Source: an uncultured Thermoplasmata archaeon (GTDB taxonomy: Archaea > Thermoplasmatota > Thermoplasmata > RBG-16-68-12). Taken from it: a stretch of DNA of 26,786 bases. The translations under genes and the position numbers were made by a program. Each line of letters starts with the position of its first letter. The stretch's first letter is position 1. The stretch lies in the NCBI GenBank assembly GCA_963768855.1, contig CAVYJM010000003.1, positions 1 to 26,786 on the forward strand, written 5' to 3'. The notes below the pieces were generated by a model. That model searched no databases. It had not been told where the DNA came from and was given only the letters and a program-made list of their open reading frames with translations. Below are positions 1 to 19,839 of the stretch, in pieces.

Positions 1-42
1 CCGCGAGCTTTATGGCGGGACCCCCCGTTGGAGGCCGCGCCC

Positions 43-981
43 ATGATCGAGGTCCGAGGACTCACGAAGGTCTACACCCGCGCGCGCGGGCAGGGCGCCA
101 AGGCCCTGGACGGCGCGACCTTCACGGTCCCGGACAGGAGCATCTTCGGATTCCTCGGGCCGAACGGCGCGGGGAAGACGACGACGATCCGGATTCTGGC
201 GACGATCCTCGAGCCGACGGAGGGCACCGCGATCGTCGAGGGCCACGACGTGCGCACAGATCCGCTCGCGGTCAAGGGCGCGATCGGCTACATGCCCGAA
301 TACCCCGGCTACTATCCCACGATGACCGCGGAGGAGCACCTCGACTACTGGGGCCGTTTCTACCACATGCCGAAGGCGGAACGGGCCAAGCGGGGCAAGG
401 AGCTCCTCGACCTCGTGGGCCTGGGCCAGGAGCGCGCGAAGAAGGTGAAGGCCTACAGCCATGGGATGCTCAAACGCCTCGGCCTGGCGCAGGCGCTCCT
501 CCATGACCCGCGCGTCTTGATCCTGGACGAACCCGCGGGCGGGCTCGACCCGTACGGGATCATCTTCTTCCGCAAGCTGATGAAGGACCTGAACCGCGAG
601 GGGAAGACGATCCTCCTCGCCTCCCACATCCTCTCCGAGGTCGCCCAGACCTGCACCCACGTCGGCGTGATCGACAAGGGGAAGATCGTCGCGGTCGACA
701 CGACCGAGGCGCTCCTGTCCCGCATCGGCGGCGCAGGGGTGCGCTGCCTCATCGAGGCGCCGAGCGTCCCGGACGCGGCCCTGCGCGGCCTCCTCGACAT
801 CAGCCACGTGAAGGATGTGGTTCGCACGGACTGGGGCCTCATCGTCACGATGGACAAGGACGCCCGGGCCGCGGTCAACGCGTTCCTCGTCGGCCTCGGC
901 GTGCCCGTGGTAGGCGTGAAGCTCGCGGAGGTCACGCTCGAGGACGCCTTCCTCTCGCTCACGGGAGGCGGGCCGACGTGA
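43..981 (+). CDS. ABC-2 type exporter ATP-binding protein (312 aa; alternative TTG start at 28)
   Basis: Walker A GPNGAGKT, Q-loop GYMPE, signature YSHGM, Walker B ILDEP, H-loop LASH. Stop overlaps the next start (GTGA, 978-981). Confidence 0.95.
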   Translation: MIEVRGLTKVYTRARGQGAKALDGATFTVPDRSIFGFLGPNGAGKTTTIRILATILEPTEGTAIVEGHDVRTDPLAVKGAIGYMPEYPGYYPTMTAEEHLDYWGRFYHMPKAERAKRGKELLDLVGLGQERAKKVKAYSHGMLKRLGLAQALLHDPRVLILDEPAGGLDPYGIIFFRKLMKDLNREGKTILLASHILSEVAQTCTHVGVIDKGKIVAVDTTEALLSRIGGAGVRCLIEAPSVPDAALRGLLDISHVKDVVRTDWGLIVTMDKDARAAVNAFLVGLGVPVVGVKLAEVTLEDAFLSLTGGGPT

Positions 982-2408
982 GCTTCGACCCGCGGGATGT
1001 GTTCCGCGGATCGCTCATCGTCGCGGGGCGCGACCTTCGCTCGAACGCGCGCGGCCTCAAGGTATGGATCATCTCAGGGCTCACCCTCCTGGCGATCCTC
1101 GGAGCGGCGTTCGGGATCGGTGGGCTCACGTCAGGGGGTCCGTCCGTCACCTCGCAGTACGTCCTCTGGGCATCTGCCTACTGGCCGGCGAACAACTCGA
1201 CGGGAGGCGTCGTCGTGTGGGTGAGCGACTATCTCGGCGCCCCGCGCGCGGGACAGGTCGTCCTCCTGGGAGAGCCGTACTCGCCCGCTGCTCAGAACAC
1301 GAGCTTCGTGGAACGCGCGCGACTCACGACGAACGCGACGGGATGGGGCACGTTCGCCAACCTGACTGCGGGTACCTGGCCCCTCCGGATCACCGTGGGC
1401 GTGCTGAACATCCCCGGAGCTGTCGGCATCCCGCCTCAACGGCCCGCCGAGAACCTGACCGTGACGGTCCAGCAGTTCGACCTCATCGGCGACGGTGCGG
1501 GGCGGGATGTGAGCCTCCACGCGATGTGGGCGGACGGGACGCCCGCCCGGGATGCCCAGGTCGCGGCGAACGGGACTGGCGTGGGCGTCACGGATCGCAA
1601 CGGCTTCCTGTACAAACGATTCGGCGACGGCAACTGGGGGTTGACGGTTACCGCCCGTGGCGAGAGCTGGGGACAGTCGGTAGCGGTCCACCCGTCCCCT
1701 CTCGCGATCCTTCCGTTCCTCCAGGGACCCGACGCGCTCCTCCTCTTTCTCGGGGTCGCGCTGATGGGTCTGTTCGCGCCGATCATCGCGATCGCCATGT
1801 CCTACGACGCGGTCGCAAAGGAGCGGATGCAGGGCAGCCTTGAGCTCCTCCTCGCGCGCCCCGCCTCCCGAGCGGGAATCGCGATCGGGAAGTTCATCGG
1901 GTCGTTCCTCTCCGTCGGACTGCCGATGCTCGGCGTCCTGCTCGGAGCCGTGGTCGGCGTCGCAGGGGTTTCGGGGAAGTGGCCCGACGTGGTCTTCGTC
2001 GCCGCCTTCGTCGTCGGGACCCTGGGCCTGATCGCGGTCTACGTGCTGATCATGCAGATCTTCTCGACCCTCGCGAAGTCCGCGGGCACGGCGATCCTCT
2101 CGGCCCTCGTCGTCTGGATCGTGTTCAACATCGTGTGGAACCTCGTGTTCCTGGCGGTGGAGTCGGCCTTCCGGATCGAGGGCGGGACGCCGGCCGCCTT
2201 TACGCTCAGCACGATCACGACCCTGTTCAACCCGAACGGGGTGTACCAGCTCCTGGTCACCACGTTCGTGCCCGCGTCCGCGCTGGGCCTCTTCGGCACG
2301 ACGGGAGGCGGGAGCCTGCCGGACTGGGTCGGGCCGGTCGCCATGGTCGTCTGGATTGCCGTCCTGCTCGTCCTCGCCGTCCTCGTGTTCCGCAAGCGGA
2401 TCGTCTGA
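978..2408 (+). CDS. ABC-2 type permease (ABC2_membrane_2/NosY-like) with a large extracellular insertion
   Basis: GGAGG at 964-968 and GTGA coupling to the ATPase. One N-terminal TM, a ~200-aa soluble loop, then the motif YDAVAKERMQGSLELLLARP...GKF and about 5 TMs. Confidence 0.9.
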   Translation: MSFDPRDVFRGSLIVAGRDLRSNARGLKVWIISGLTLLAILGAAFGIGGLTSGGPSVTSQYVLWASAYWPANNSTGGVVVWVSDYLGAPRAGQVVLLGEPYSPAAQNTSFVERARLTTNATGWGTFANLTAGTWPLRITVGVLNIPGAVGIPPQRPAENLTVTVQQFDLIGDGAGRDVSLHAMWADGTPARDAQVAANGTGVGVTDRNGFLYKRFGDGNWGLTVTARGESWGQSVAVHPSPLAILPFLQGPDALLLFLGVALMGLFAPIIAIAMSYDAVAKERMQGSLELLLARPASRAGIAIGKFIGSFLSVGLPMLGVLLGAVVGVAGVSGKWPDVVFVAAFVVGTLGLIAVYVLIMQIFSTLAKSAGTAILSALVVWIVFNIVWNLVFLAVESAFRIEGGTPAAFTLSTITTLFNPNGVYQLLVTTFVPASALGLFGTTGGGSLPDWVGPVAMVVWIAVLLVLAVLVFRKRIV

Positions 2409-2412
2409 GCGA

Positions 2413-2438
2413 CCGCCCGGGCGGATGTGGGCCATCCG
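2413..2438. repeat. Palindrome CCGCCCGGGCGG (2413-2424) and overlapping hairpin CGGATG/CATCCG (2422-2438); possible terminator
   Basis: Read directly; begins 4 nt after the permease stop. Confidence 0.5.
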
Positions 2439-2464
2439 ACCTCGAGATTCGGGCGTGAATTGGG

Positions 2465-2533
2465 ATTACTATCTTAATAGTATTCCGCCGATTGTGTGAC
2501 TATCACTTCGCGAAGTGTACAATGACCCTTAAG
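2465..2533 (+). promoter_or_regulatory. AT-rich promoter region of the GT2 gene with two dyads and TATA-like boxes
   Basis: TACTAT-ctta-ATAGTA (2467-2482), perfect 14-bp palindrome CACTTCGCGAAGTG (2504-2517), CTTAAG (2528-2533). Confidence 0.55.
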
Positions 2534-2553
2534 AAGCACGGAGGTGCAAGTCG

Positions 2554-4194
2554 GTGTACAAGGAGACCCCGCGGTTGACGATGGAAGGCCGTTCTGTCGC
2601 GCAGCGCCGCTTTGCCAACCGCTTCTTCGTCCTGGTCTTCGCCATCTGGATCGGCGCCGTTGCCATCTTCGCCGGCACGACGGTGAACTTCCGCTCCTGG
2701 ATCAGCGTCCTCCAGTTCGGGCTGATGGTGTTCTTCCTGTTCAGCTTCGCAATCGTGTTCTCGAAGCGCGTCGTCTCCCTCTTCGTGAAGCCGTACCCGC
2801 TCCCCAAGCTCGACTCCCTCGCGAGGCAGCCGCGCGTCGCCCTCCTCTACACGACCATGAACGACGTTGTCCCGGACTGCGTGGAGGCGATCCGCCAGAC
2901 GTACCCGGTGGACGTCTACATGCTGGACGACTCCTCGGACCCGTACAGGCGAGCCACCGTCGACGACCTGGCGCGCAAGCATGGGTTCCGGATCCTCCGC
3001 CGCCCCGAGCGCAAGGGGTTCAAGGCGGGCGCAATCAACGGCTGGCTCCGGCAGTTCGGCGCGCAGTACGACTACTTCGTCCTCTTGGACGCGGACTCGA
3101 TCCTCCCGCCCGACTGGGTCGCGGAGGCCCTGAAGTACGCGGAGCATCCGGAGAACCGGGACCTCGCGATCTTCCAGGGTCTCATCAACATCTGGAACAC
3201 GGACCGCCCGTTCCCCCGCGCGCTCGCTGCGACGACCCTCCTCGGCCAGGACGAGTGGGAGCGTCGGGTCAGCGGCTACGTGGGCGCGGTGTTCTGCTAC
3301 GGGCACAACGTCATGCTGCGGACGAAGCCGGTCCTGGAGATCGGCGGGTTCGTCGAGGACTATGTGTCCGAGGACTTCGCGACGGCCGTGAAGCTCGCGT
3401 CGGCGGGCCACGGCTCCGTGTTCGTGCCCCTCCACACCTGGGAGGCCATGCCCGAGAACGTCCGCGGGTTCGTGAAGCGGCAGACCAAGTGGACGCGCGG
3501 GTCGATGGAGTTCTGGTCGTTCGTGCCCCCGGCCCGGCTGCCGTGGTGGAAGAAGGTCTTCCTCTACACGACCCCGATGAATCACGTGGCCTATATCACG
3601 ATCATGTTCGCGATGGTCGCGGCCGTATTCGGCCGCGTCTCGACGCCCGGGGCGTTCTTCGCGTTCGGCCAGAACCTCCTCGTCGAGCCGATCGCGTACA
3701 TCTGGTCGATCAACCTCTTCCGTTTCATCATCGTCATGTCCCTCATCACGTCCGTCTTCACGGTCGCGAAGCTCGTCCAGGTGCGGCTGGGCTTCTGGCG
3801 GTACTACCGGGCCCGGACCCTGAGCAAGGCGATCGGGGCGATCATGCTGCCCCACGAGATCCGGGCGATGCTCATGTACCTCGTCGACCCGCGGAGGAAG
3901 TTCCCCGTGACGCCCAAGGACGAGCCGCCGATGACGATGCGGGAGATCCTCCACGTCGGCCGCGGGACCGTCGCGCTCGTCGCCGTCATGGCCCTCGGCC
4001 TCACGATGTGGAACCCCGTCGGGCTGTGGTACAACGCCCTCTGGTTCCTGTCGTTCATCACCGCCCCCTTCGTCCTCTACTACTACTGCGGCCCGCTGAC
4101 CCGGCCCGCGGACCCGACGGGACAGGGACCGCGGGACCTGCTTGCCGACCCGAGGATCCGGACGAGCGTGGACGGCGCCGTTTCAAGGATTTGA
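2554..4194 (+). CDS. Membrane-bound processive family 2 glycosyltransferase (OpgH/MdoH- or BcsA-like glycan synthase), 546 aa
   Basis: GGAGGTG 7 nt before the GTG (alternative ATG at 2581). 2 N-terminal TMs; motifs LDDS, FKAG, LDADS (DxD), GHN, SED and QTKW (QxxRW-like); several C-terminal TMs. Confidence 0.88.
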   Translation: MYKETPRLTMEGRSVAQRRFANRFFVLVFAIWIGAVAIFAGTTVNFRSWISVLQFGLMVFFLFSFAIVFSKRVVSLFVKPYPLPKLDSLARQPRVALLYTTMNDVVPDCVEAIRQTYPVDVYMLDDSSDPYRRATVDDLARKHGFRILRRPERKGFKAGAINGWLRQFGAQYDYFVLLDADSILPPDWVAEALKYAEHPENRDLAIFQGLINIWNTDRPFPRALAATTLLGQDEWERRVSGYVGAVFCYGHNVMLRTKPVLEIGGFVEDYVSEDFATAVKLASAGHGSVFVPLHTWEAMPENVRGFVKRQTKWTRGSMEFWSFVPPARLPWWKKVFLYTTPMNHVAYITIMFAMVAAVFGRVSTPGAFFAFGQNLLVEPIAYIWSINLFRFIIVMSLITSVFTVAKLVQVRLGFWRYYRARTLSKAIGAIMLPHEIRAMLMYLVDPRRKFPVTPKDEPPMTMREILHVGRGTVALVAVMALGLTMWNPVGLWYNALWFLSFITAPFVLYYYCGPLTRPADPTGQGPRDLLADPRIRTSVDGAVSRI

Positions 4195-4269
4195 GGTTCG
4201 GTCGGCCTCAAATCGTCCGGTTCGGGAAGGCCGTGCTCCCATCCGTCTCGATGGGAGCCATTTGCAAAT
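4188..4269. other. Structured intergenic element: two 9-bp-stem hairpins and a 10-bp palindrome
   Basis: GATTTGAGG/CCTCAAATC (4188-4214, spans the GT2 stop), GCTCCCATC/GATGGGAGC (4235-4258), ATTTGCAAAT (4260-4269). Confidence 0.55.
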
Positions 4270-4336
4270 CCGGCAATCACCTTTGACATTCGAAGCGCCA
4301 GTCGTATCTCCCTGGAGCCCCCGTGGCCCCTGCCGA

Positions 4337-6136
4337 ATGCGACCCATCCTCCGGAGCGATGACAGCGCGGTGGCCTCGGCGGTCGCCACGATGCTCGTGT
4401 TTCTCGTAGTCGTGGTAATCCTCCAAACCGTCGTGATTGGGGCGGTCCCCGCCCAGCAGTACTCGGCCGAGTGGGTCACGTCCAAGCACGATCTCCAGCA
4501 GTTCGATCGGATGCGAGCCATGGCAGCTGGACCCGCGGTCGCCGGCACGATGTTCACGATTCCGTTCAACCTGGGAACGCCAGCCGTCTCCCCGTTCGCA
4601 ACGACGAGCACCGGGACGCTCTCGTACTCCGCGAACGACTCGTACGCCCTGTCGATCTCGTACACGTTCGTTCCACACTTCCGCCAGGCGAGCGTGACGA
4701 AGGTCAACCAGGACGTCATCCTGCTCATGGACAACTCCGGGTCGATGGCGTGGAATGACCCGCAGAACCTCCGGATCACCGGCGCCCAGGAGTACGTTGG
4801 CCGCCTGGCAACGCCTGACTGTGTGGCAATCGTGGCCTTCAACGGTCGTTCGTATCTGACGCAGGCGAACATCGGCGGAACGCCCCACCACCTCTATTAT
4901 CCGGGGATGTGCGGCGTCCCGGACTACACCCAGCCGCAAGCCGACTTGGGGACGATCAGCGACATCGACAGCACGAACATCGGTCTTGCGATTCAGACGG
5001 GGAACAACGAGCTCATCGCGAACGGCCACAAGGGCAAGGCCTGGATCGAGATCCTCCTGACGGACGGCCAGAATGAGTGCAGCGGGAGCCAGCCTCCCTG
5101 CGGGAACACGTTCACGATCCAGCAGGCTCAGATCGCGAAGGCGAACAACATCACGATTTTCACGATCGGCCTGAGCAGCGCAGCCGATGCGAACCTGCTC
5201 GGGCAGATTGCGTCGATTACGGGGGGCACGTACTATCCCGCGCCAACCGCTTCCTCGATCCGATGGATCTACTATGAGATCAGCATGCGCTACCAGAGCT
5301 CGGTGCAGTGTGGCAGCCTCGTCACGTCCGAGGTCTACGGTGGCGCGCTGTCCCTCGAACTCCAGACGAGTCAGTACCCGTCTCAAACCATCCGGTTCGA
5401 GTCCGGCGGGATCTCCCTCATCCAGACCGCGGGCTCGACCATGTACGAGGGCCTGCCCTTCACATACTCGAGGACCGGTGGCGGTGGGGGAGACCTGTCC
5501 GTGGCGCTCGTCCTCATCACGGGCACGCCGTTCGGGTTCTCGGGGAGCGACACCCGGGTGGTCCAAGCGAACGTCCTGGGCCGTCAAGTCGTGGACCAGT
5601 CCAGCATCCGGATCGACCTCGGGACGGAGACCTCGGCGGTGGGGAACCTTTCCGCGAGCATGACATACTGGGCCAATCAGGGAGCCCTCACGCCTGCGGC
5701 GGCGGCGGCCGTGAACGCCCCGCTCGACGCGGCTCAGTCCGAGCTCAGCTTCGCCGCATGGAACGCGACCTCGGGCGATATCAGCGGCGCGAGGTTCGGC
5801 GTGGATCGGGCCCAGACGGACCTCTCCATCGCGATCAATGTGACCGAGGCCCAGCGAAAGGCGAATGCGATGCAGGCATGGCTCGCCCAGCAGACCCGGG
5901 ACTCGATCCGCCTCGAGCAGTGTCGCGTCGCCCAGTGGGGGAACTGGTACGACGGTCTCACAGTCACGGTGACCTCCCCAGCGGCCGCCGCCTGGGCCTC
6001 CTGGTTCAACGCGACTTTCCTCGCCCTGAATGTGCCGTTCTCGCTAGGCCTCTCGGGTAACGTGGCTGTCGTCACCATTCATGCGCTGGACCAGATCACG
6101 ACCGACCGTCGAGTCCTATCCCTGACGGGCACGTGA
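4337..6136 (+). CDS. Archaeal type IV pilin-like secreted protein with an inserted von Willebrand A domain (599 aa)
   Basis: N-terminus MRPILRSDDSA/VASAVATMLVFLVVVVIL resembles a class III signal peptide. The vWA domain (~4710-5290) has an intact MIDAS: DNSGS, STN, LTDG, plus IFTIG. Several Cys and N-x-S/T sequons. Confidence 0.8.
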   Translation: MRPILRSDDSAVASAVATMLVFLVVVVILQTVVIGAVPAQQYSAEWVTSKHDLQQFDRMRAMAAGPAVAGTMFTIPFNLGTPAVSPFATTSTGTLSYSANDSYALSISYTFVPHFRQASVTKVNQDVILLMDNSGSMAWNDPQNLRITGAQEYVGRLATPDCVAIVAFNGRSYLTQANIGGTPHHLYYPGMCGVPDYTQPQADLGTISDIDSTNIGLAIQTGNNELIANGHKGKAWIEILLTDGQNECSGSQPPCGNTFTIQQAQIAKANNITIFTIGLSSAADANLLGQIASITGGTYYPAPTASSIRWIYYEISMRYQSSVQCGSLVTSEVYGGALSLELQTSQYPSQTIRFESGGISLIQTAGSTMYEGLPFTYSRTGGGGGDLSVALVLITGTPFGFSGSDTRVVQANVLGRQVVDQSSIRIDLGTETSAVGNLSASMTYWANQGALTPAAAAAVNAPLDAAQSELSFAAWNATSGDISGARFGVDRAQTDLSIAINVTEAQRKANAMQAWLAQQTRDSIRLEQCRVAQWGNWYDGLTVTVTSPAAAAWASWFNATFLALNVPFSLGLSGNVAVVTIHALDQITTDRRVLSLTGT

Positions 6137-6209: not shown

Positions 6210-6491
6210 TCACTCCGCTTCTATAGCGTGGACGGAACTCATCTGGAGAAGGAGGTACGCGCGCGCGAGCTCGTCCTTGTCTTCGTCCGAGAGGCGAGGG
6301 TCTTCCATGTACTGCTCGTACAGGGGCTCGACGTCCCCGTGGGCGAGGCAGGTCACGGCCATGTTGAGAACATACTCCGTGAGGACCCGCTGGACGGCCT
6401 GTCGCACATCGACGACCGCCCCTGCCGGCGTGGTTGTGGAGCCGAGGAGCGACTTGATCGATTTCATCGGGGTCACGGCGTGGACATACAT
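6210..6491 (-). CDS. Small hypothetical protein with an acidic, probably helical C-terminal half (93 aa; alternative start at 6467)
   Basis: Fills the gap between the vWA and roadblock genes; composition is unlike the Arg/Pro-rich shadow ORFs. No family recognised. Confidence 0.55.
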   Translation of the reverse strand: MYVHAVTPMKSIKSLLGSTTTPAGAVVDVRQAVQRVLTEYVLNMAVTCLAHGDVEPLYEQYMEDPRLSDEDKDELARAYLLLQMSSVHAIEAE

Positions 6492-6607
6492 GGGAGTCCC
6501 TCGTACCTAACGGCTTGCGCCTGGTTATCATGCATGGTCATTCTGGCGCCCGGGTCGCCGACTCAGGGTCCCTTCCCCGGATAATTGCCGTCTGTGATAG
6601 TGAGGTC

Positions 6608-6630
6608 CATTCCCTTTTGAAGCGGGAATG
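6608..6630 (+). promoter_or_regulatory. TATA-like TTTTGAAG enclosed by inverted repeat CATTCCC/GGGAATG
   Basis: Arms at 6608-6614 and 6624-6630; about 30 nt upstream of the ATG at 6652. Confidence 0.5.
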
Positions 6631-6651: not shown

Positions 6652-7062
6652 ATGGATTCCCTCCGGATGGTCCCCGCCGACTTCTTCGCTGAGCTCGTGC
6701 CGAACGGCCGGATCGAGATGGCGATGCTCCTGAAGCGGAACGGCCGCATGCTCGCCGCGTGGGCGCGCTCGCCGGTGGCGTGGGAGGTCGTGTCCATCAT
6801 GGCGGCGACCACGCTCGGGTCCCTCGAGACGATGCTCGAGACGATCCACGCCCCCTCGCCGGAGGTGGTGGGGATCGTCGCGTGCGGCAACCGGATCCAC
6901 GTCCAGAAGGTCGACCCGCAGGGGATGCTCGTCCTCGTGGCGAAGGACGTCGTGACGGAGGCCTACCTCCGGGACACGGCGCGTCGAATCCTCGCGAAGC
7001 TCCCGCTGGCCACGAAGGACGACCCCCCGCGGCGGGTGACGTTGGGCCCGAATTTCCGCTGA
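6652..7062 (+). CDS. Roadblock/LC7 (MglB-like) domain protein (136 aa; alternative starts at 6628, 6667)
   Basis: Pattern MAMLLKRNGRMLAA, helix SIMAATTLGSLETML, three strands (VGIVACG, RIHVQKV, MLVLVA), then C-terminal helix EAYLRDTARRILAKL. This matches the roadblock fold layout. Confidence 0.8.
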   Translation: MDSLRMVPADFFAELVPNGRIEMAMLLKRNGRMLAAWARSPVAWEVVSIMAATTLGSLETMLETIHAPSPEVVGIVACGNRIHVQKVDPQGMLVLVAKDVVTEAYLRDTARRILAKLPLATKDDPPRRVTLGPNFR

Positions 7063-7157
7063 ATGCTGTGCTGAGTTGTCCTCCCGCTATACGGGCCGAC
7101 TACTTCTCGGCAATCCCATGACGATTTCCCTCATTCTAGCGCCCGATACCGAGGGAA

Positions 7158-7169
7158 GAACGCTTAAGC
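7158..7169 (+). promoter_or_regulatory. BRE-TATA element GAACGCTTAAGC
   Basis: Identical 12-mer lies upstream of the epimerase (16409-16420, minus strand). Confidence 0.6.
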
Positions 7170-7225
7170 CGGGCGCGATTTCATTAGTGGCTCCCCTCTT
7201 CAGTCCTGGGCGAGGGACGCGGGCG

Positions 7226-7780
7226 ATGGAGCACGAGAACCTCAAGACCAAGATCTGCCTCGTCGGCGACAACGGCGTCGGCAAGACGTCGCTGATCCGG
7301 CGATACGTCCTCGACATGTTCGAGGACAAGTACCTGACCACCCTGGGCACGAAGGTCTCCAAGAGAGAGATCGAGGTCTCGTTCCCCAAGGAGAACCTGG
7401 TCGCCAAGGTCGACATGCTCATCTGGGACATCATGGGCCAGCACGGGTTCCAGGAGCTGCTCAAGGAGGCGTACTTCTACGGCGCGCGCGGCATCCTCGC
7501 CGTGGTCGACGTCACGCGCCGATCGACGCTCGCAGGGCTCGACGACTGGATCGCGTGCGTCGAGGAGGTCGCGGGGCACCTGCCCACCCTCATCGCGGTG
7601 AACAAGACGGACCTCGCGGACAAGGCCGAGTTCGGCCTCCCGGAGATCACGGAGCGCTGCGACGCGCTCGGTTGCGGCTACTTCTGGACGAGCGCCAAGA
7701 CGGGCGAGAACGTGGAGCCGTCGTTCCAGCGCCTCGCCGCGATCGTCGCGGAGCAGCAGATCTGGGGCACCCAGTTCTGA
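7226..7780 (+). CDS. Rab/Ras-like small GTPase (184 aa)
   Basis: G1 GDNGVGKT, G2 TTLGT, G3 WDIMGQ, G4 NKTD, G5 SAK. RabF-like segments MLIWD, YFYGA, VVDVT. No C-terminal prenylation Cys. Confidence 0.93.
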   Translation: MEHENLKTKICLVGDNGVGKTSLIRRYVLDMFEDKYLTTLGTKVSKREIEVSFPKENLVAKVDMLIWDIMGQHGFQELLKEAYFYGARGILAVVDVTRRSTLAGLDDWIACVEEVAGHLPTLIAVNKTDLADKAEFGLPEITERCDALGCGYFWTSAKTGENVEPSFQRLAAIVAEQQIWGTQF

Positions 7781-7823: not shown

Positions 7824-8396
7824 ATGCGGACCACCGCTGTGGAATTGCGGAAGGTGCTGCTGCCGGAGGGCCTCGCCGAGGCCGAGCTCGCATCGAAGCC
7901 CTCGTCCGCCGTGATGGTCCTCCTGCGGCCTGCGGGCGACGGCCTCGAGGTCCTCCTCGGCCGCCGCATCCGGCGCTCCGGCGATCCGTGGTCCGGCCAG
8001 GTCTCCTTCCCCGGGGGCCACCACCACCGCGACGACGGATCCCTCCTCGAGACCGCCCTGCGGGAGACCCGGGAGGAGGTGAACCTAGACCTCCGCGGGA
8101 GCGCCGAGATCCTCGGACACCTTGCGCCCCGCTCTCCTGGCAACGTCCCTGAAATGCTCGTCGTCCCCTTCGTCGCCTTCGCACATGGTCCGCTCCGACC
8201 CCAGCCCGGGCCGGAGATGAAAGAGACGTTCTGGGCCCCCCTCGCCGAGCTTCCCGCCTCCTGGGGCCAGACGGTCGTGTCGACCCGGGTCGGGGAGCTC
8301 AAGGTGCCCGCGTTCCTGTGGAAGGACCGGATCGTGTGGGGGCTGACCTACCGCATCCTCGAGGAGCTCCTCGTCCTGGTCGGGATCAGCCGCTGA
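7824..8396 (+). CDS. Nudix hydrolase, CoA pyrophosphatase (PCD1/NudL-like) subfamily
   Basis: WSGQVSFPGG followed by the Nudix box GGHHHRDDGSLLETALRETREEV; C-terminal VWGLTYRIL. TATA-like CCTAAG at 7793-7798. Confidence 0.9.
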   Translation: MRTTAVELRKVLLPEGLAEAELASKPSSAVMVLLRPAGDGLEVLLGRRIRRSGDPWSGQVSFPGGHHHRDDGSLLETALRETREEVNLDLRGSAEILGHLAPRSPGNVPEMLVVPFVAFAHGPLRPQPGPEMKETFWAPLAELPASWGQTVVSTRVGELKVPAFLWKDRIVWGLTYRILEELLVLVGISR

Positions 8397-10302: not shown

Positions 10303-11172
10303 CTAGGGCCCGATGGGCGGAAGGACCGCCGCGAGCAGGAAGGGCGCGATGAGGTACAGGATCACGTTGCCGAGGGTGTGGCTCATGATTGCCCCCCAGA
10401 GGCTCTTCGTCTTCACGACGACGACGGCGTAGAGTAGGCCGACGAGGAAGACGAAGGTCAGGTCGAACGCGTTGCGGAAGAAGATGTGCATCGCGGAGAA
10501 CACGAGCGTGACGAACAGGACGCCGACCTTGTTCCCCAGGACCGCCATCGCGCGTCGCAGCATGATCCCACGGAAGATGAGCTCCTCTGCGAGCCCCGTC
10601 GCGAAGAAGATCACGGCGCCGCCGAACAGCACCTCCGTGATCGTCTCGCCCGTGATCCAGGCCTGTTCGCGCAGGATCGTGTACTCGACGAAGCCGAGCG
10701 GGATGCCCGTGAGCCCGATCAGGACCTGGACCCAGAGCTCCTTCCACGACCGGATTGCGAGGCCCAGGAGCCACGGGCTGAGTTGCTGGACGTAGGCCAC
10801 CGCCGCGGCGGCCGTCAGGAGCGGGATGCCAACGACCGCGAGCCAGGGCAGCGTGGCGGTCGGCGCCGTGCCCCAGAAGCGGGGCATGGACAGGGAGAAG
10901 ATCCGGATGAGCGGCGCGAGGCTCAGGGCCATCAGGAAAACGGAGAGCTCGACGTCCCGGTCCTGGATCGTCACGGCATGGAACAGGAGGGCAAACACCA
11001 GGAGGATGTGCAGGGTGAGCCCGTACTGCTGGAAGGGGAAGACCGTCGGATTCGACGGGTCCTGGATGGCGATCAGGGCCTCTGCGAGGATCAGGACGCT
11101 GAGGTAGATCGCCCCGATGGCCCACCGCGGGAGGCGGAAGGTCCGGGCGGCGTGGGCGGTTTCCGTCGCCAT
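10303..11172 (-). CDS. CPBP family (Abi/Rce1-like) glutamic intramembrane protease (289 aa)
   Basis: All three family motifs: AEELIFRG (EExxxR), FSAMH (FxxxH), HTLGN (HxxxN). Multi-TM; SD-like GAGGGGTG upstream. Confidence 0.92.
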   Translation of the reverse strand: MATETAHAARTFRLPRWAIGAIYLSVLILAEALIAIQDPSNPTVFPFQQYGLTLHILLVFALLFHAVTIQDRDVELSVFLMALSLAPLIRIFSLSMPRFWGTAPTATLPWLAVVGIPLLTAAAAVAYVQQLSPWLLGLAIRSWKELWVQVLIGLTGIPLGFVEYTILREQAWITGETITEVLFGGAVIFFATGLAEELIFRGIMLRRAMAVLGNKVGVLFVTLVFSAMHIFFRNAFDLTFVFLVGLLYAVVVVKTKSLWGAIMSHTLGNVILYLIAPFLLAAVLPPIGP

Positions 11173-11183
11173 CCCGCACCCCC

Positions 11184-12542
11184 TCACAGCTCGATCGGCG
11201 TCGGCTCGAGCGGTTCGAGCGGCTCCGTCTCGAACGACTTCCGCGCGACGAACCAGTAGTAGGGCGTCTGTGCGACAGTCGCGATGACGTAGGCGATCGA
11301 GAGACCGGTGATGCCGCTCGTCGTCAGGAGGCTGTAGCCGAGGCCCAGCATGACCGCGGAGGAGATTGCGGCTCCCACGATGAGCGGCAGGGTGCGGCGG
11401 CGCACGCGGACCCGCGTCGCGAGCAGGTTGTTGGCGACCGCAGGGATCGAGGCGAGTGTCAGGATCCGGAGAGGCTCCGTCGCCGCGTCGGCGTACGAGG
11501 TCGTCGCGCCCCCGAAGAGCTCGAGGACCAAGTGGGCGAAGATCCAGAACACGATGATCGCCGGTGTGAGGAGCGCCAGCGTCAGCAGGAGGGCGCGCCG
11601 CTCGTCCCGGTGGCGGTCCGCGCTCCGGTAGCTGGCCTCCGCGTAGAACGAGGTGAACGCGGCACCCGAGATGACCGTCAGCAGGCCGGCGACCGCGCTC
11701 GCCACGTAGAAGTACGCCGCGTTGTCCGGGCCCGCCGGACCCAGTGCGTTCAGGATGAGCAGGGGGAGGAGGGCGGTCCCCGCCCCCCCGACGATGCTGG
11801 CCGCATAATTGCCGTTGCTGAAGCGCATCATCGGACGCAGCCGGGCGAAGTGGGCGCGGAGGCGCGGGCGGTAGCCCTCCAGAATCCGCGGGAGGAGCCA
11901 GAGGCCCTCGAGGAGCACGCTCGCGGCCATCGCCGCCACGAGGGCGAGAAACACACCGAAGCGCCCGACGCCCAGGGAAACGCTGAGCGTCAGGGCGATG
12001 GCGACCGCGATCGGGATCTTCATGATGCCCAGGGCCACGGTCCGCCACATGGGGATGTCGGACCGGCGGAGCGCGACCGCCGCGTTGTCCAGGATGGGGC
12101 CGAGGGCGCACGCGAGGCATCCGATGACGATCAGGATGGGGTAGGCGGGGTTCTCCAGCACGAAGGAGAGGTCCAGCCCGACCAGGGCGATCACCAGGAG
12201 GAACCCGAGGCTCAGGAGGATGGATGCCGCGCCGACGAGGGTGAGGGAAGTGTTCACCAGGTCGTTCTTGTCCTCCGCCTCGGGGAGGTAGCGGATGATC
12301 GCGATGTTCTGCCCGAGCAGGCTGAGGGAGGCGACGAAGCTCACCGTCGAGAACAAGGCGACGGCGAACCCGATGTCGCTGCGCTGATAGACGCGTGTGA
12401 CGACGGCCCAGAAGAAGAACCCGAGGCCCTGCCCGACGACGCTGTTGGCCATGAGGAAGATCGCGTTGCGGTACAGGGACGTCTTCGCCTCGCCCCAGAG
12501 CCTTCCGATCGTTCGCTTCGTCCCGCCGAGGCTGTCTCCCAC
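11184..12542 (-). CDS. Wzx/RfbX-like oligosaccharide flippase (MOP superfamily), 452 aa
   Basis: About 12 TMs. N-terminus LYRNAIFLMANSVVGQGLGFFFW; LGQNIAIIRYLP; FSNGNY; FYVASAVAGLL patterns typical of polysaccharide-biosynthesis flippases. Confidence 0.85.
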   Translation of the reverse strand: MGDSLGGTKRTIGRLWGEAKTSLYRNAIFLMANSVVGQGLGFFFWAVVTRVYQRSDIGFAVALFSTVSFVASLSLLGQNIAIIRYLPEAEDKNDLVNTSLTLVGAASILLSLGFLLVIALVGLDLSFVLENPAYPILIVIGCLACALGPILDNAAVALRRSDIPMWRTVALGIMKIPIAVAIALTLSVSLGVGRFGVFLALVAAMAASVLLEGLWLLPRILEGYRPRLRAHFARLRPMMRFSNGNYAASIVGGAGTALLPLLILNALGPAGPDNAAYFYVASAVAGLLTVISGAAFTSFYAEASYRSADRHRDERRALLLTLALLTPAIIVFWIFAHLVLELFGGATTSYADAATEPLRILTLASIPAVANNLLATRVRVRRRTLPLIVGAAISSAVMLGLGYSLLTTSGITGLSIAYVIATVAQTPYYWFVARKSFETEPLEPLEPTPIEL

Positions 12543-12590
12543 ACGTCACGCGTCCTGGGGCCTGCTTCTGCGAAGAAAATTACCTCTGAG

Positions 12591-18109: not shown

Positions 18110-18249
18110 GGACCCGCCGGTCCCCGCTCCGACGAGGCTCGACGGAAGGGAGTCGTTTTCCTTTCGGCCACCCTAAACGCGATAATTCACGCAAACGATA
18201 CTGCGGCAGAAACGGCTAAATCAGGGTGCTTCAACTCGTCCTTCCATTC

Positions 18250-19839
18250 ATGGTCGAGCCCGCGGACTGGTACTCCCTGATCTCGGTCTCCACCTCGGCC
18301 GTCGCCCTGGGCCTCGCCGCCTACGTCCTCAAGAAGATCCCCAACCGCCGCGCGGGCGACACGTTCGTCCTCGCCATGACCTTCTTCCTCCTCGCCGCCG
18401 TCTCCGCGTACCTCCTCCGGATCTCCGATCCCTGGGGCGAGGACACGTCCCTCGTCCTGGCCCACATGTTCTACTTCTTCCACATGCTCGCGGTCGGGTT
18501 CACGGCCGCGTTCGTCGGCTCGTACTTCTACGGCTTCAAGGTCATGGGTCGGCGGGCCGTGGTCCTGTTCCTCCAGATCTCGCTCTTCGCGTCCGCATTC
18601 GTGGTCTCGACCCTCGTGACGGCGGTGGAATCCTATCCGGGATACGGCGTCGTGGTTGACAGCGCGAACGCGACCCTGGCCCTCGCCGTACTGGCCACGG
18701 CCTTCATGAGCACGGCCCTGGGCGTCCTCGCCCGCACGCTCTACGTGAACAAGGATCCGATCGTCCGGAAACAGGCGCTCGTCATGACCCTCGGCATCCT
18801 GGCCCACGGCGCTGGGGCGGAGTCGTATGCGTACCTGAGGATCGGGCTCGACTCGTATCCGCCACCGTTCCTCACGATCACCGCGCTCGCGATGGCCGCC
18901 ACGTTCGGCCTTGCGGTCCTCCGGTACAAGATGTTCGTCGTTACGCCGCGCAAGGAAGCATCCCTGGATCTTCCCGTGAAGTTCCCGATCCGGGCCGGGC
19001 ACGCCTACGTCGTCGAGGAGGCGGCTCCCGAGCTTCTCCTGCGAGCCTTCGACGAGGCCGTCCACCGCGGCGAGAGCGGCCTCCTCGTGACCCGACGCAA
19101 CCCCACCGCGGTCCGCGAGGACACGGGATTGGCCGAGACGCCCGTCCTCTGGCTCACGGACACGCCGGGACTGAACCGCGTCGCCCCGGGAAACCCGGCG
19201 ATGCTCGAGCGGCTCGTCGAGTCGTTCGTGGAGAAGGCTCCCTCGGCGGTCGTCGGGCTCGACGGCTTCGAGTCTCTCGCGCGCGAGGCCGGCACCGAGC
19301 GCGCGATCCAGTGCGTGCAGCGGATGAAGGACCAGATCCTGTCCGCAGGGGGCGCGTTCCTCGTGAGCGTGGCGGGAATGGCGCTCGGCGCGGAGAGCAT
19401 CTCGTTCTTCGAGCGAGAGTTCGAGCGTCTCCCCGTGCCGGAGCCCGCCGCCGCGACGATCGAGGATCTGTTCGTCATCGAGGCGAACACGGGCATCCTC
19501 CTGGCACGGAGGGCCCGGCCGACGAGCGAGGAGCTCGACGCGGACCTCATGGCCGGCATGCTTACTGCGATCATGGACTTCGCGAAGGCCTCCTTCGCCC
19601 GGGGCAACGACCAATTGCGGGATCTCACCCTCGGGGAACGGAAGGTGGCCCTCGAGCGCGGATCGCGGATGATCGTGGCCGCGGTCTTCCATGGGCGCGA
19701 CCCGCCCGATGTGCACTCGGAGATGCGGGCCTTCGTGATTCGAGCGGAGACGGCCTATGGCCCCACGCTCGCGAAGTGGAGCGGCGACATGACGGAGATG
19801 CGCGGCCTCGAGGTCATGGCGGGGCGGCTGTTCCTCTAG
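18250..19839 (+). CDS. 7TM sensor (HisKA_7TM-like), DUF835 and longin/roadblock-like fusion protein (529 aa; alternative GTG start at 18226)
   Basis: 7 hydrophobic helices ending VLRYKMF. DUF835 pattern LLVTRRNP...VLWLT...VVGLDGFESL (~18980-19425). C-terminal IEDLFVI...G.LL...DADLMAGMLTAIMDF...ERG...KWSGD (~19455-19836). Confidence 0.82.
   Translation: MVEPADWYSLISVSTSAVALGLAAYVLKKIPNRRAGDTFVLAMTFFLLAAVSAYLLRISDPWGEDTSLVLAHMFYFFHMLAVGFTAAFVGSYFYGFKVMGRRAVVLFLQISLFASAFVVSTLVTAVESYPGYGVVVDSANATLALAVLATAFMSTALGVLARTLYVNKDPIVRKQALVMTLGILAHGAGAESYAYLRIGLDSYPPPFLTITALAMAATFGLAVLRYKMFVVTPRKEASLDLPVKFPIRAGHAYVVEEAAPELLLRAFDEAVHRGESGLLVTRRNPTAVREDTGLAETPVLWLTDTPGLNRVAPGNPAMLERLVESFVEKAPSAVVGLDGFESLAREAGTERAIQCVQRMKDQILSAGGAFLVSVAGMALGAESISFFEREFERLPVPEPAAATIEDLFVIEANTGILLARRARPTSEELDADLMAGMLTAIMDFAKASFARGNDQLRDLTLGERKVALERGSRMIVAAVFHGRDPPDVHSEMRAFVIRAETAYGPTLAKWSGDMTEMRGLEVMAGRLFL

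Follow-up and report, generated by a model that had tools for sequence, protein, structure and literature searches.

The DNA analysed here, referred to as the window, is a complete 26.8-kb contig (C3; 26,786 nucleotides) of a metagenome-assembled genome (MAG) from an uncultured Thermoplasmata archaeon (G000; 2.87 Mb in 24 contigs, ~66% G+C), and its sequence is carried by wetland and freshwater-sediment DNA metagenomes. Our subject is two genes on its forward strand: one for a Roadblock/LC7/MglB-fold protein and, directly downstream after a gap of 163 nt (7063–7225), one for a Ras/Rab-like small GTPase. An earlier note, made from the sequence alone, had described a tandem, co-oriented pair, and the two open reading frames (ORFs) do form one (Table 1). 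The pairing is conserved. The Roadblock gene stands directly upstream in 12 of the 13 distinct loci of one GTPase clade, near-duplicate contigs being taken once, and the gaps range from 54 to 163 nt. The host, which the note had judged to be non-Asgard, is confirmed as Thermoplasmata; orthologous contigs are annotated as 'Thermoplasmata archaeon', and one as Methanomassiliicoccales.

Pfam is silent on the upstream gene. Its product falls short of the Robl_LC7 (PF03259) gathering cut-off (14.5 bits, E = 0.03, against 23 bits), has no significant match in Pfam or NCBIfam, and returned nothing meaningful from a sequence search of the PDB; a few orthologues carry a weak precomputed Pfam Roadblock match. 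The first identification therefore had no basis in Pfam, and the fold is established through profile and structure. The protein has 66 homologues with 56–100% identity, several of them labelled 'Roadblock/LC7/MglB family' by JGI, and a hidden Markov model built from these homologues recovered three Pfam-positive Roadblock ORFs of the same genome (5e-7, 1.4e-6 and 1e-4, among 30,051 six-frame ORFs). The AlphaFold2 model (pLDDT 78.8) has the order alpha-beta-beta-alpha-beta-beta-beta-alpha, with helices at residues 15–18, 44–64 and 103–114 and strands at 21–28, 33–38, 72–77, 80–87 and 91–98. In a Foldseek search of the PDB, every one of the top 50 matches is an MglB, LAMTOR/MP1-p14 or Asgard Roadblock protein (probability 1.0), and the best are MglB from Myxococcus xanthus and Thermus thermophilus, LAMTOR and Asgard Roadblock (E 3e-7, TM 0.65–0.76). 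Profile, fold and structural matches together bear out the Roadblock/LC7 identity that the note had assigned, which Pfam alone misses. We place the start at ATG 6652 because the N-terminus MDSLR is conserved in 25 homologues.

Helix alpha2 is the best-conserved part of the Roadblock protein and is invariant (SIMAAT..GS..T..E); in MglB, helix alpha2 is the surface that touches MglA. The protein ends in a disordered C-terminal tail with an invariant TLGP. An invariant KRNGR loop was considered as an arginine finger acting in trans and was rejected, because its counterpart in the alignment is the RRDG hairpin typical of the family, seen in canonical Roadblock proteins of the same genome. The closest paralogue, of the C15 type (34% identity), adjoins a double-HTH regulator and no GTPase.

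The downstream gene encodes a single G domain that Pfam assigns to Ras (1.3e-30; 106.6 bits against a cut-off of 21.6), followed by Roc (3e-25), Arf (4.5e-8) and Gtr1_RagA (1.5e-5, 25 bits), and it exceeds the cut-off of TIGR00231. The Ras/Rup motif set is complete, with G1 GDNGVGKT (7265–7288), switch I TTLGT, G3 DIMGQ (7427–7441) within WDIMGQ, G4 NKTD (7601–7612) and G5 SAK (7691–7699). All the G-motifs, the glutamine-keeping G3 and the YFYGA and VVDVT segments listed in the note can each be read from the GTPase sequence. MglA-type proteins lack the G3 aspartate (PMC4316618), and the GTPase does not fit their G3 (TxPGQ, no Asp). The note's assignment to the Ras/Rab type rather than the MglA type stands, since the G3 Asp and Gln are both kept and a separate MglA-type GTPase (FGTPGQ) is encoded in the same genome.

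The description as Rab-like holds in part. Among solved structures, the 60 best matches are Rab1A/B (3e-24, 89 bits), the Thorarchaeota Rab 7EZB (4e-23), Rab27, Rab8, Sec4, Rab6 and one Ran, and the GTPase shares with eukaryotic Rab1, Rab8 and Sec4 the P-loop GDxGVGK[ST] and the YFYGA (RabF4-like) and VVDVT (RabF5-like) segments. By comparison with the RabF consensus, these are the only two segments with a resemblance: in an alignment to Rab1A, the RabF1–F3 positions read LGTKV, DMLIW and GFQELL. Moreover, the C-terminus has no prenylation cysteine and ends in ...AEQQIWGTQF, which is conserved in orthologues. Rag GTPases form heterodimers and carry a C-terminal Roadblock domain of their own; the 184-residue protein has none and is a bare G domain. 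Judged by its sequence, the GTPase fits the Rup concept and is not MglA, a true Rab or a Rag.

We found both orthologues together in 5 of the 35 species genomes of the genus (G000, G256, G310, G321 and the congeneric species G128, NCBI Thermoplasmata MAG GCA_035632695), and they are also paired on several metagenomic contigs. A deeper subclade (loci L065–L068) retains the order at 45–51% Roadblock and 62–67% GTPase identity. The gene upstream of the conserved unit varies by locus, being a VWA, PNGase A, methyltransferase, glycosyltransferase or another GTPase gene. Outside the clade, the 27 other Roadblock loci surveyed across the class all lack a Ras-type GTPase within 1.5 kb, no Roadblock gene is detectable within 3 kb of the other 17 Ras-type paralogues of the source genome, and the GTPases just outside the clade (P0167 and P0129) have different upstream genes. 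In a maximum-likelihood tree, the Roadblock-linked GTPases and that of the exceptional thirteenth locus (in G317) form one clade (UFboot 80, SH-aLRT 40), within which the window's GTPase orthogroup is supported at 100/99. One gain and one loss explain the Roadblock linkage on this tree, a result equalled by 0 of 500 shuffles; the tree fits an origin of the pairing by one gain and one later loss.

The switch II sequence DIMGQHGFQELLK marks the sole clade, among the Ras-type GTPases examined, that has a Roadblock gene directly upstream. Four positions are invariant in the linked GTPases and rare in paralogues, and H73, Q76 and R88 lie in or beside switch II. Gln72 is kept in every linked GTPase, and the commonest paralogue type has Glu (DIMGE). 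A 315-residue protein (P0078) that was considered as a Roadblock–GTPase fusion was discarded, being a partial GTPase joined to a GTPase.

The linked clade lies within a large family. The source genome has 18 strong Pfam Ras matches, or 20 at E ≤ 0.001, with a tandem triplet on contig C7 and a doublet on C12. Across the class, Ras-family genes occur in 111 of the 151 Thermoplasmata species genomes sampled, with 8–19 copies everywhere in the window's order and as many as 22 outside it; they are absent from few Thermoplasmata families, mostly ones with complete small genomes. NCBI annotates these proteins as 'Rab family GTPase', and the literature searched holds single Rab-like sequences only, from Thermoplasmatales and Aciduliprofundum (PMC4915359). 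The note had called GTPase expansions a hallmark of Asgard archaea, implying rarity elsewhere; for this class, the count of 111 in 151 contradicts such rarity. Two GTPase ORFs of the source genome (C20:7288–7785 and C24:12968–13465) have identical printed N-terminal 70 residues, near-equal Pfam Ras scores and an unusual P-loop (GANTGCKT); they represent either a duplicated region or redundant contigs.

The same genome encodes the MglA type in a different setting. At G000:C6:940606-943854 (L013), an MglA-type GTPase (G3 FGTPGQ) is the fusion partner of a KaiC-like domain; behind the fusion gene come two Pfam-positive Roadblock genes and a further KaiC-like gene, at junctions that overlap or abut. 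The MglA-type protein reaches only 36 bits with Pfam Ras. A reciprocal PDB test did not separate the two types, as it ranked Arl3 and Arl8 ahead of MglA for the genome's own MglA-type domain; we therefore used the G3 motif and Pfam scores.

Conserved elements precede each gene of the pair. The sequence TAATTGCC-N5-TGATAG lies ~50–70 nt before the Roadblock ATG in all eight aligned orthologous loci; in the whole 2.87-Mb genome its sole perfect match is at this locus, and four other sites have at most two substitutions. It is a candidate binding site of some regulator. A TATA-like CCTTTTGAA is common to the same eight loci, 30–40 nt before the Roadblock ATG. Within the Roadblock–GTPase gap, six of the eight loci share a palindromic (G/C)CTTAAG(C/G) located 55–62 nt before the GTPase ATG (57 nt for the window's copy, GCTTAAGC), and boxes of the TTAAG/TTATAA type lie 35–65 nt upstream of most GTPase paralogues. 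Because the gap box is conserved and similar boxes precede most paralogues, the GTPase probably has its own promoter, and the note's caveat that the two genes may be transcribed separately holds. Read-through from the Roadblock gene into the GTPase gene is possible, since the Roadblock stop has no oligo-T run after it. Scans of the window for Rfam families and tRNAs gave nothing in the intergenic gaps.

The pair is part of a variable cassette. In three congeners (G100, G226 and G268), a block of NUDIX, m185 and p248 genes is kept, with nothing related to the Roadblock gene, the GTPase gene or the divergently oriented p85 gene in front of it. As these congeners keep the NUDIX block without all three, we delimit the cassette as divergent p85, Roadblock and GTPase. 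The NUDIX gene begins 43 nt past the GTPase gene in the window and 32–45 nt past it across loci, at every locus; it is probably co-transcribed with the GTPase gene and is a member of the older block. Its product matches NF007980 at 1.5e-15, below that model's cut-off. In the one locus that lacks the Roadblock gene (L060, G317:C35), a PIN-domain (VapC-like) gene at 2072–2476 is inserted between the GTPase and NUDIX genes.

The p85 protein is 32–72% identical across 10 loci, and its AlphaFold2 model (pLDDT 80.5) consists of three helices. It has no match in Pfam, NCBIfam or the Atlas, and no fold match in the PDB (best E 0.74); p85 is a new family of 85-residue three-helix proteins. A paralogue (G000:C6:449101-449325, reverse strand) lies ~70 nt upstream of the co-oriented GTPase paralogue C6:448490, an arrangement found in G000, G128, G214 and G256, and at two loci of the deeper subclade (L065 and L067) a GTPase of the C6:448490 type follows p85 at the present locus. 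More distant p85-like genes (G100, G226, G268 and G292) have no GTPase nearby.

Table 1. Genes and conserved elements of the Roadblock–GTPase locus, in window coordinates
Feature	Position	Strand	Description
p85	6210..6467	-	85-aa three-helix protein of no known family; member of the variable cassette
Upstream element TAATTGCC-N5-TGATAG	6582..6600	+	Candidate regulator-binding site; kept in 8/8 loci
TATA-like box CCTTTTGAAG	6613..6622	+	Probable Roadblock promoter (inferred function); kept in 8/8 loci
Roadblock/LC7/MglB-fold protein	6652..7062	+	136 aa; ATG 6652, stop 7060-7062; family profile, AlphaFold2, Foldseek
Palindromic GCTTAAGC	7162..7169	+	TATA-like box or control site, probably a GTPase promoter element; 6/8 loci
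Ras/Rab-like (Rup-type) small GTPase	7226..7780	+	184 aa; ATG 7226, stop 7778-7780; switch II DIMGQHGFQELLK, C-terminus QQIWGTQF
NUDIX hydrolase, CoA-pyrophosphatase-like	7824..8396	+	Pfam NUDIX 8.6e-15; downstream block, outside the cassette

The remainder of the window holds envelope-related genes at 1–6136 (an ABC ATPase, an ABC-2 permease, a family-2 glycosyltransferase and a 599-residue VWA-domain protein) and, further downstream, a BNR-repeat protein and a 1412-residue beta-helix/PKD surface protein. A few genes downstream of the pair, a large membrane protein with an Rce1-like CAAX-protease domain (10303–12549, reverse strand) is kept in all relatives; a link between it and the GTPase is unlikely because the GTPase has no CAAX box. 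At 18226–19839 on the forward strand lies a gene for a 537-residue protein with a DUF835 domain (2.9e-18). The contamination estimate of the MAG is 7.7%.

What does the Roadblock protein do beside this GTPase? MglB dimers are established as 2:1 GTPase-activating proteins (GAPs) of MglA, and Rag and Rab GTPases are under the control of Roadblock or longin platforms (PMC9481161, PMC3747258). We predicted a complex of two Roadblock chains, the GTPase, GTP and Mg, and obtained an ipSAE of 0.35 against 0.01 for the best control, graded 'weak support'; runs agree in at least 87% of contacts, with partner pLDDT of at least 87. In the benchmark, 58 of 80 solved complexes scored at least as high as the mark, as did 2 of 110 mismatched pairs, and scores of 0.60 or lower came from only 7 of those solved complexes together with both mismatches. 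Since the MglA/MglB complex has been solved, part of the score may be memory.

On balance, we give about an even chance that the Roadblock protein is a dedicated, direct regulatory partner of the adjoining GTPase, a reading under which we infer binding, stoichiometry, the direction of regulation and a cellular role. By analogy with MglB, the most likely arrangement would be a Roadblock homodimer that uses the face formed by its alpha2 helices to bind the switch regions of the GTPase in its GTP-bound state. The docked dimer would set the nucleotide state, and GAP-like action, in which it would orient the GTPase's own Gln72, is the favoured variant. Such a partnership would have originated once, inside the lineage-specific Rab-like GTPase expansion of Thermoplasmata, by placement of a Roadblock paralogue before one GTPase paralogue; the switch II of the linked paralogue would then have been fixed in its clade-specific form.

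Several observations weigh against a direct partnership. Complex scores of this size are wrong more often than they are right, unless the prior is high. GAP action of the MglB type needs an intrinsic arginine of MglA, and an equivalent was not identified in the GTPase. In G317, p85 and the GTPase are present and the Roadblock gene is absent. The bootstrap support of the linked clade is modest, and a search for fused versions longer than the Roadblock protein itself was negative, which is weak evidence. The downstream region (NUDIX, m185, p248, p77 and the Rce1-like gene) is equally syntenic, so that part of the pair's conservation is shared ancestry in one genus-level clade. Finally, the GTPase probably has a promoter of its own, and the gap of 54–163 nt contrasts with the overlap in the genome's own MglA-type/Roadblock operon.

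Many of these facts would also be expected if the two genes were neighbours only, separately transcribed and without direct interaction between their products, the Roadblock protein acting on one or more other GTPase paralogues or on a non-GTPase partner while adjacency persists through a young clade and a syntenic region. A promoter-like box before each gene with a wide gap between them, a downstream block just as syntenic, the retention of the GTPase without its Roadblock gene in G317 and the weak complex score all agree with mere adjacency. So do the C15-type paralogue and the 26 other Roadblock loci without a nearby Ras-type GTPase, which indicate that the subfamily is able to work without an adjacent GTPase. 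Nevertheless, we consider this explanation unlikely, if still a serious contender: the cassette boundary exactly encloses p85, Roadblock and GTPase, the upstream genes swap while the pair remains, adjacency extends down to 45% Roadblock identity, and the switch II changes are clade-specific. Moreover, regulation of GTPases is the established role of stand-alone prokaryotic Roadblock proteins (PMC4316618, PMC9481161).

If the partnership is direct, the Roadblock dimer may be a platform or a guanine nucleotide exchange factor (GEF) instead of a GAP, binding the nucleotide-free or GDP form and activating or localising the GTPase in the manner of Ragulator or of the longin platforms of TRAPP and Mon1-Ccz1. 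LAMTOR subunits match the Roadblock model as well as MglB does, and some Roadblock or longin complexes are established GEFs (PMC9481161, PMC3747258). One study reports allosteric regulation of MglA by the C-terminal segment of MglB (PMC6785124), and the present protein has its invariant TLGP tail; that tail, however, is absent from the deeper Roadblock-linked subclade. Ragulator, in turn, binds the Roadblock domains of Rag proteins and not their G domains, and the 184-residue GTPase has no such domain. The retention of Gln72 in the linked clade alone is a better fit to control of hydrolysis, and we judge the platform or GEF alternative quite improbable.

The cassette as a whole admits a wider and speculative reading, to which we assign a low probability. 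RomY and RomX act as co-GAP and exchange factor for MglA/MglB and provide a model for p85. On this model, p85, Roadblock and GTPase would together be a minimal Ras-type switch of three parts, evolved by Thermoplasmata separately from Asgard archaea and eukaryotes, with the Roadblock dimer as GAP and p85 as co-GAP or exchange factor.

Among the closest known systems, MglA/MglB of M. xanthus and T. thermophilus (PDB 3T12, 6IZW and 6H5B) likewise has a stand-alone Roadblock protein of ~130–160 residues encoded beside a small Ras-superfamily GTPase, and MglB is the best structural match of the present Roadblock model. In the mglBA operon the Roadblock gene also comes first, as it does here. In contrast to MglA, the present GTPase has a canonical DxxGQ G3 and a Pfam Ras score above 100 bits, and the two genes are loosely spaced, with apparently separate promoters. 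Coupling to the gene of an MglB homologue, one criterion of the MglA family, is found for this GTPase at 12 of its 13 loci. With the Rup family of Wuichet and Sogaard-Andersen (2015), it shares the single domain, the G1–G5 motifs, an archaeal host and heavy duplication, as in the crenarchaeal Group 2; unlike that family, it comes from Thermoplasmata, has a Roadblock gene coupled to its own and retains the Gln of G3. The 2015 survey counted MglB coupling for 0 of 121 Rup-type GTPases, as opposed to 404 of 488 MglA-type GTPases (PMC4316618, Table 1).

Likeness to the Asgard and eukaryotic systems extends to both proteins. A Thorarchaeota Rab is among the best GTPase matches, the MK-D1 Roadblock structures 7YH1 and 9JUE match the Roadblock model, and so do the LAMTOR2/3 (MP1-p14) subunits of Ragulator, at TM 0.61–0.82. 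In MK-D1, small GTPase genes generally lie outside Roadblock operons, and the link is seen as fusions (PMC10933270); here, by contrast, there is a conserved gene pair, no fusion was found, and the host is not an Asgard archaeon.

Roadblock proteins in themselves occur widely among prokaryotes (PMC12962969), and a GTPase/Roadblock pair is regarded as a minimal ancestral unit of switch plus regulator (PMC9481161). Their prokaryotic link had previously been documented for MglA-type GTPases only, whereas the partner described here is a canonical Ras/Rab-like GTPase in a non-Asgard archaeon. If the partnership is real, the pair would provide a small, soluble two-protein system in which the action of a Roadblock dimer on a DxxGQ GTPase could be tested. 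If the three-part switch were also real, Roadblock control of DxxGQ Ras-type GTPases would not be confined to the line of Asgard archaea and eukaryotes. The locus adds to the evidence for Rab-like expansions and Roadblock/longin partners beyond Asgard archaea, which bears on their use as markers in eukaryogenesis scenarios.

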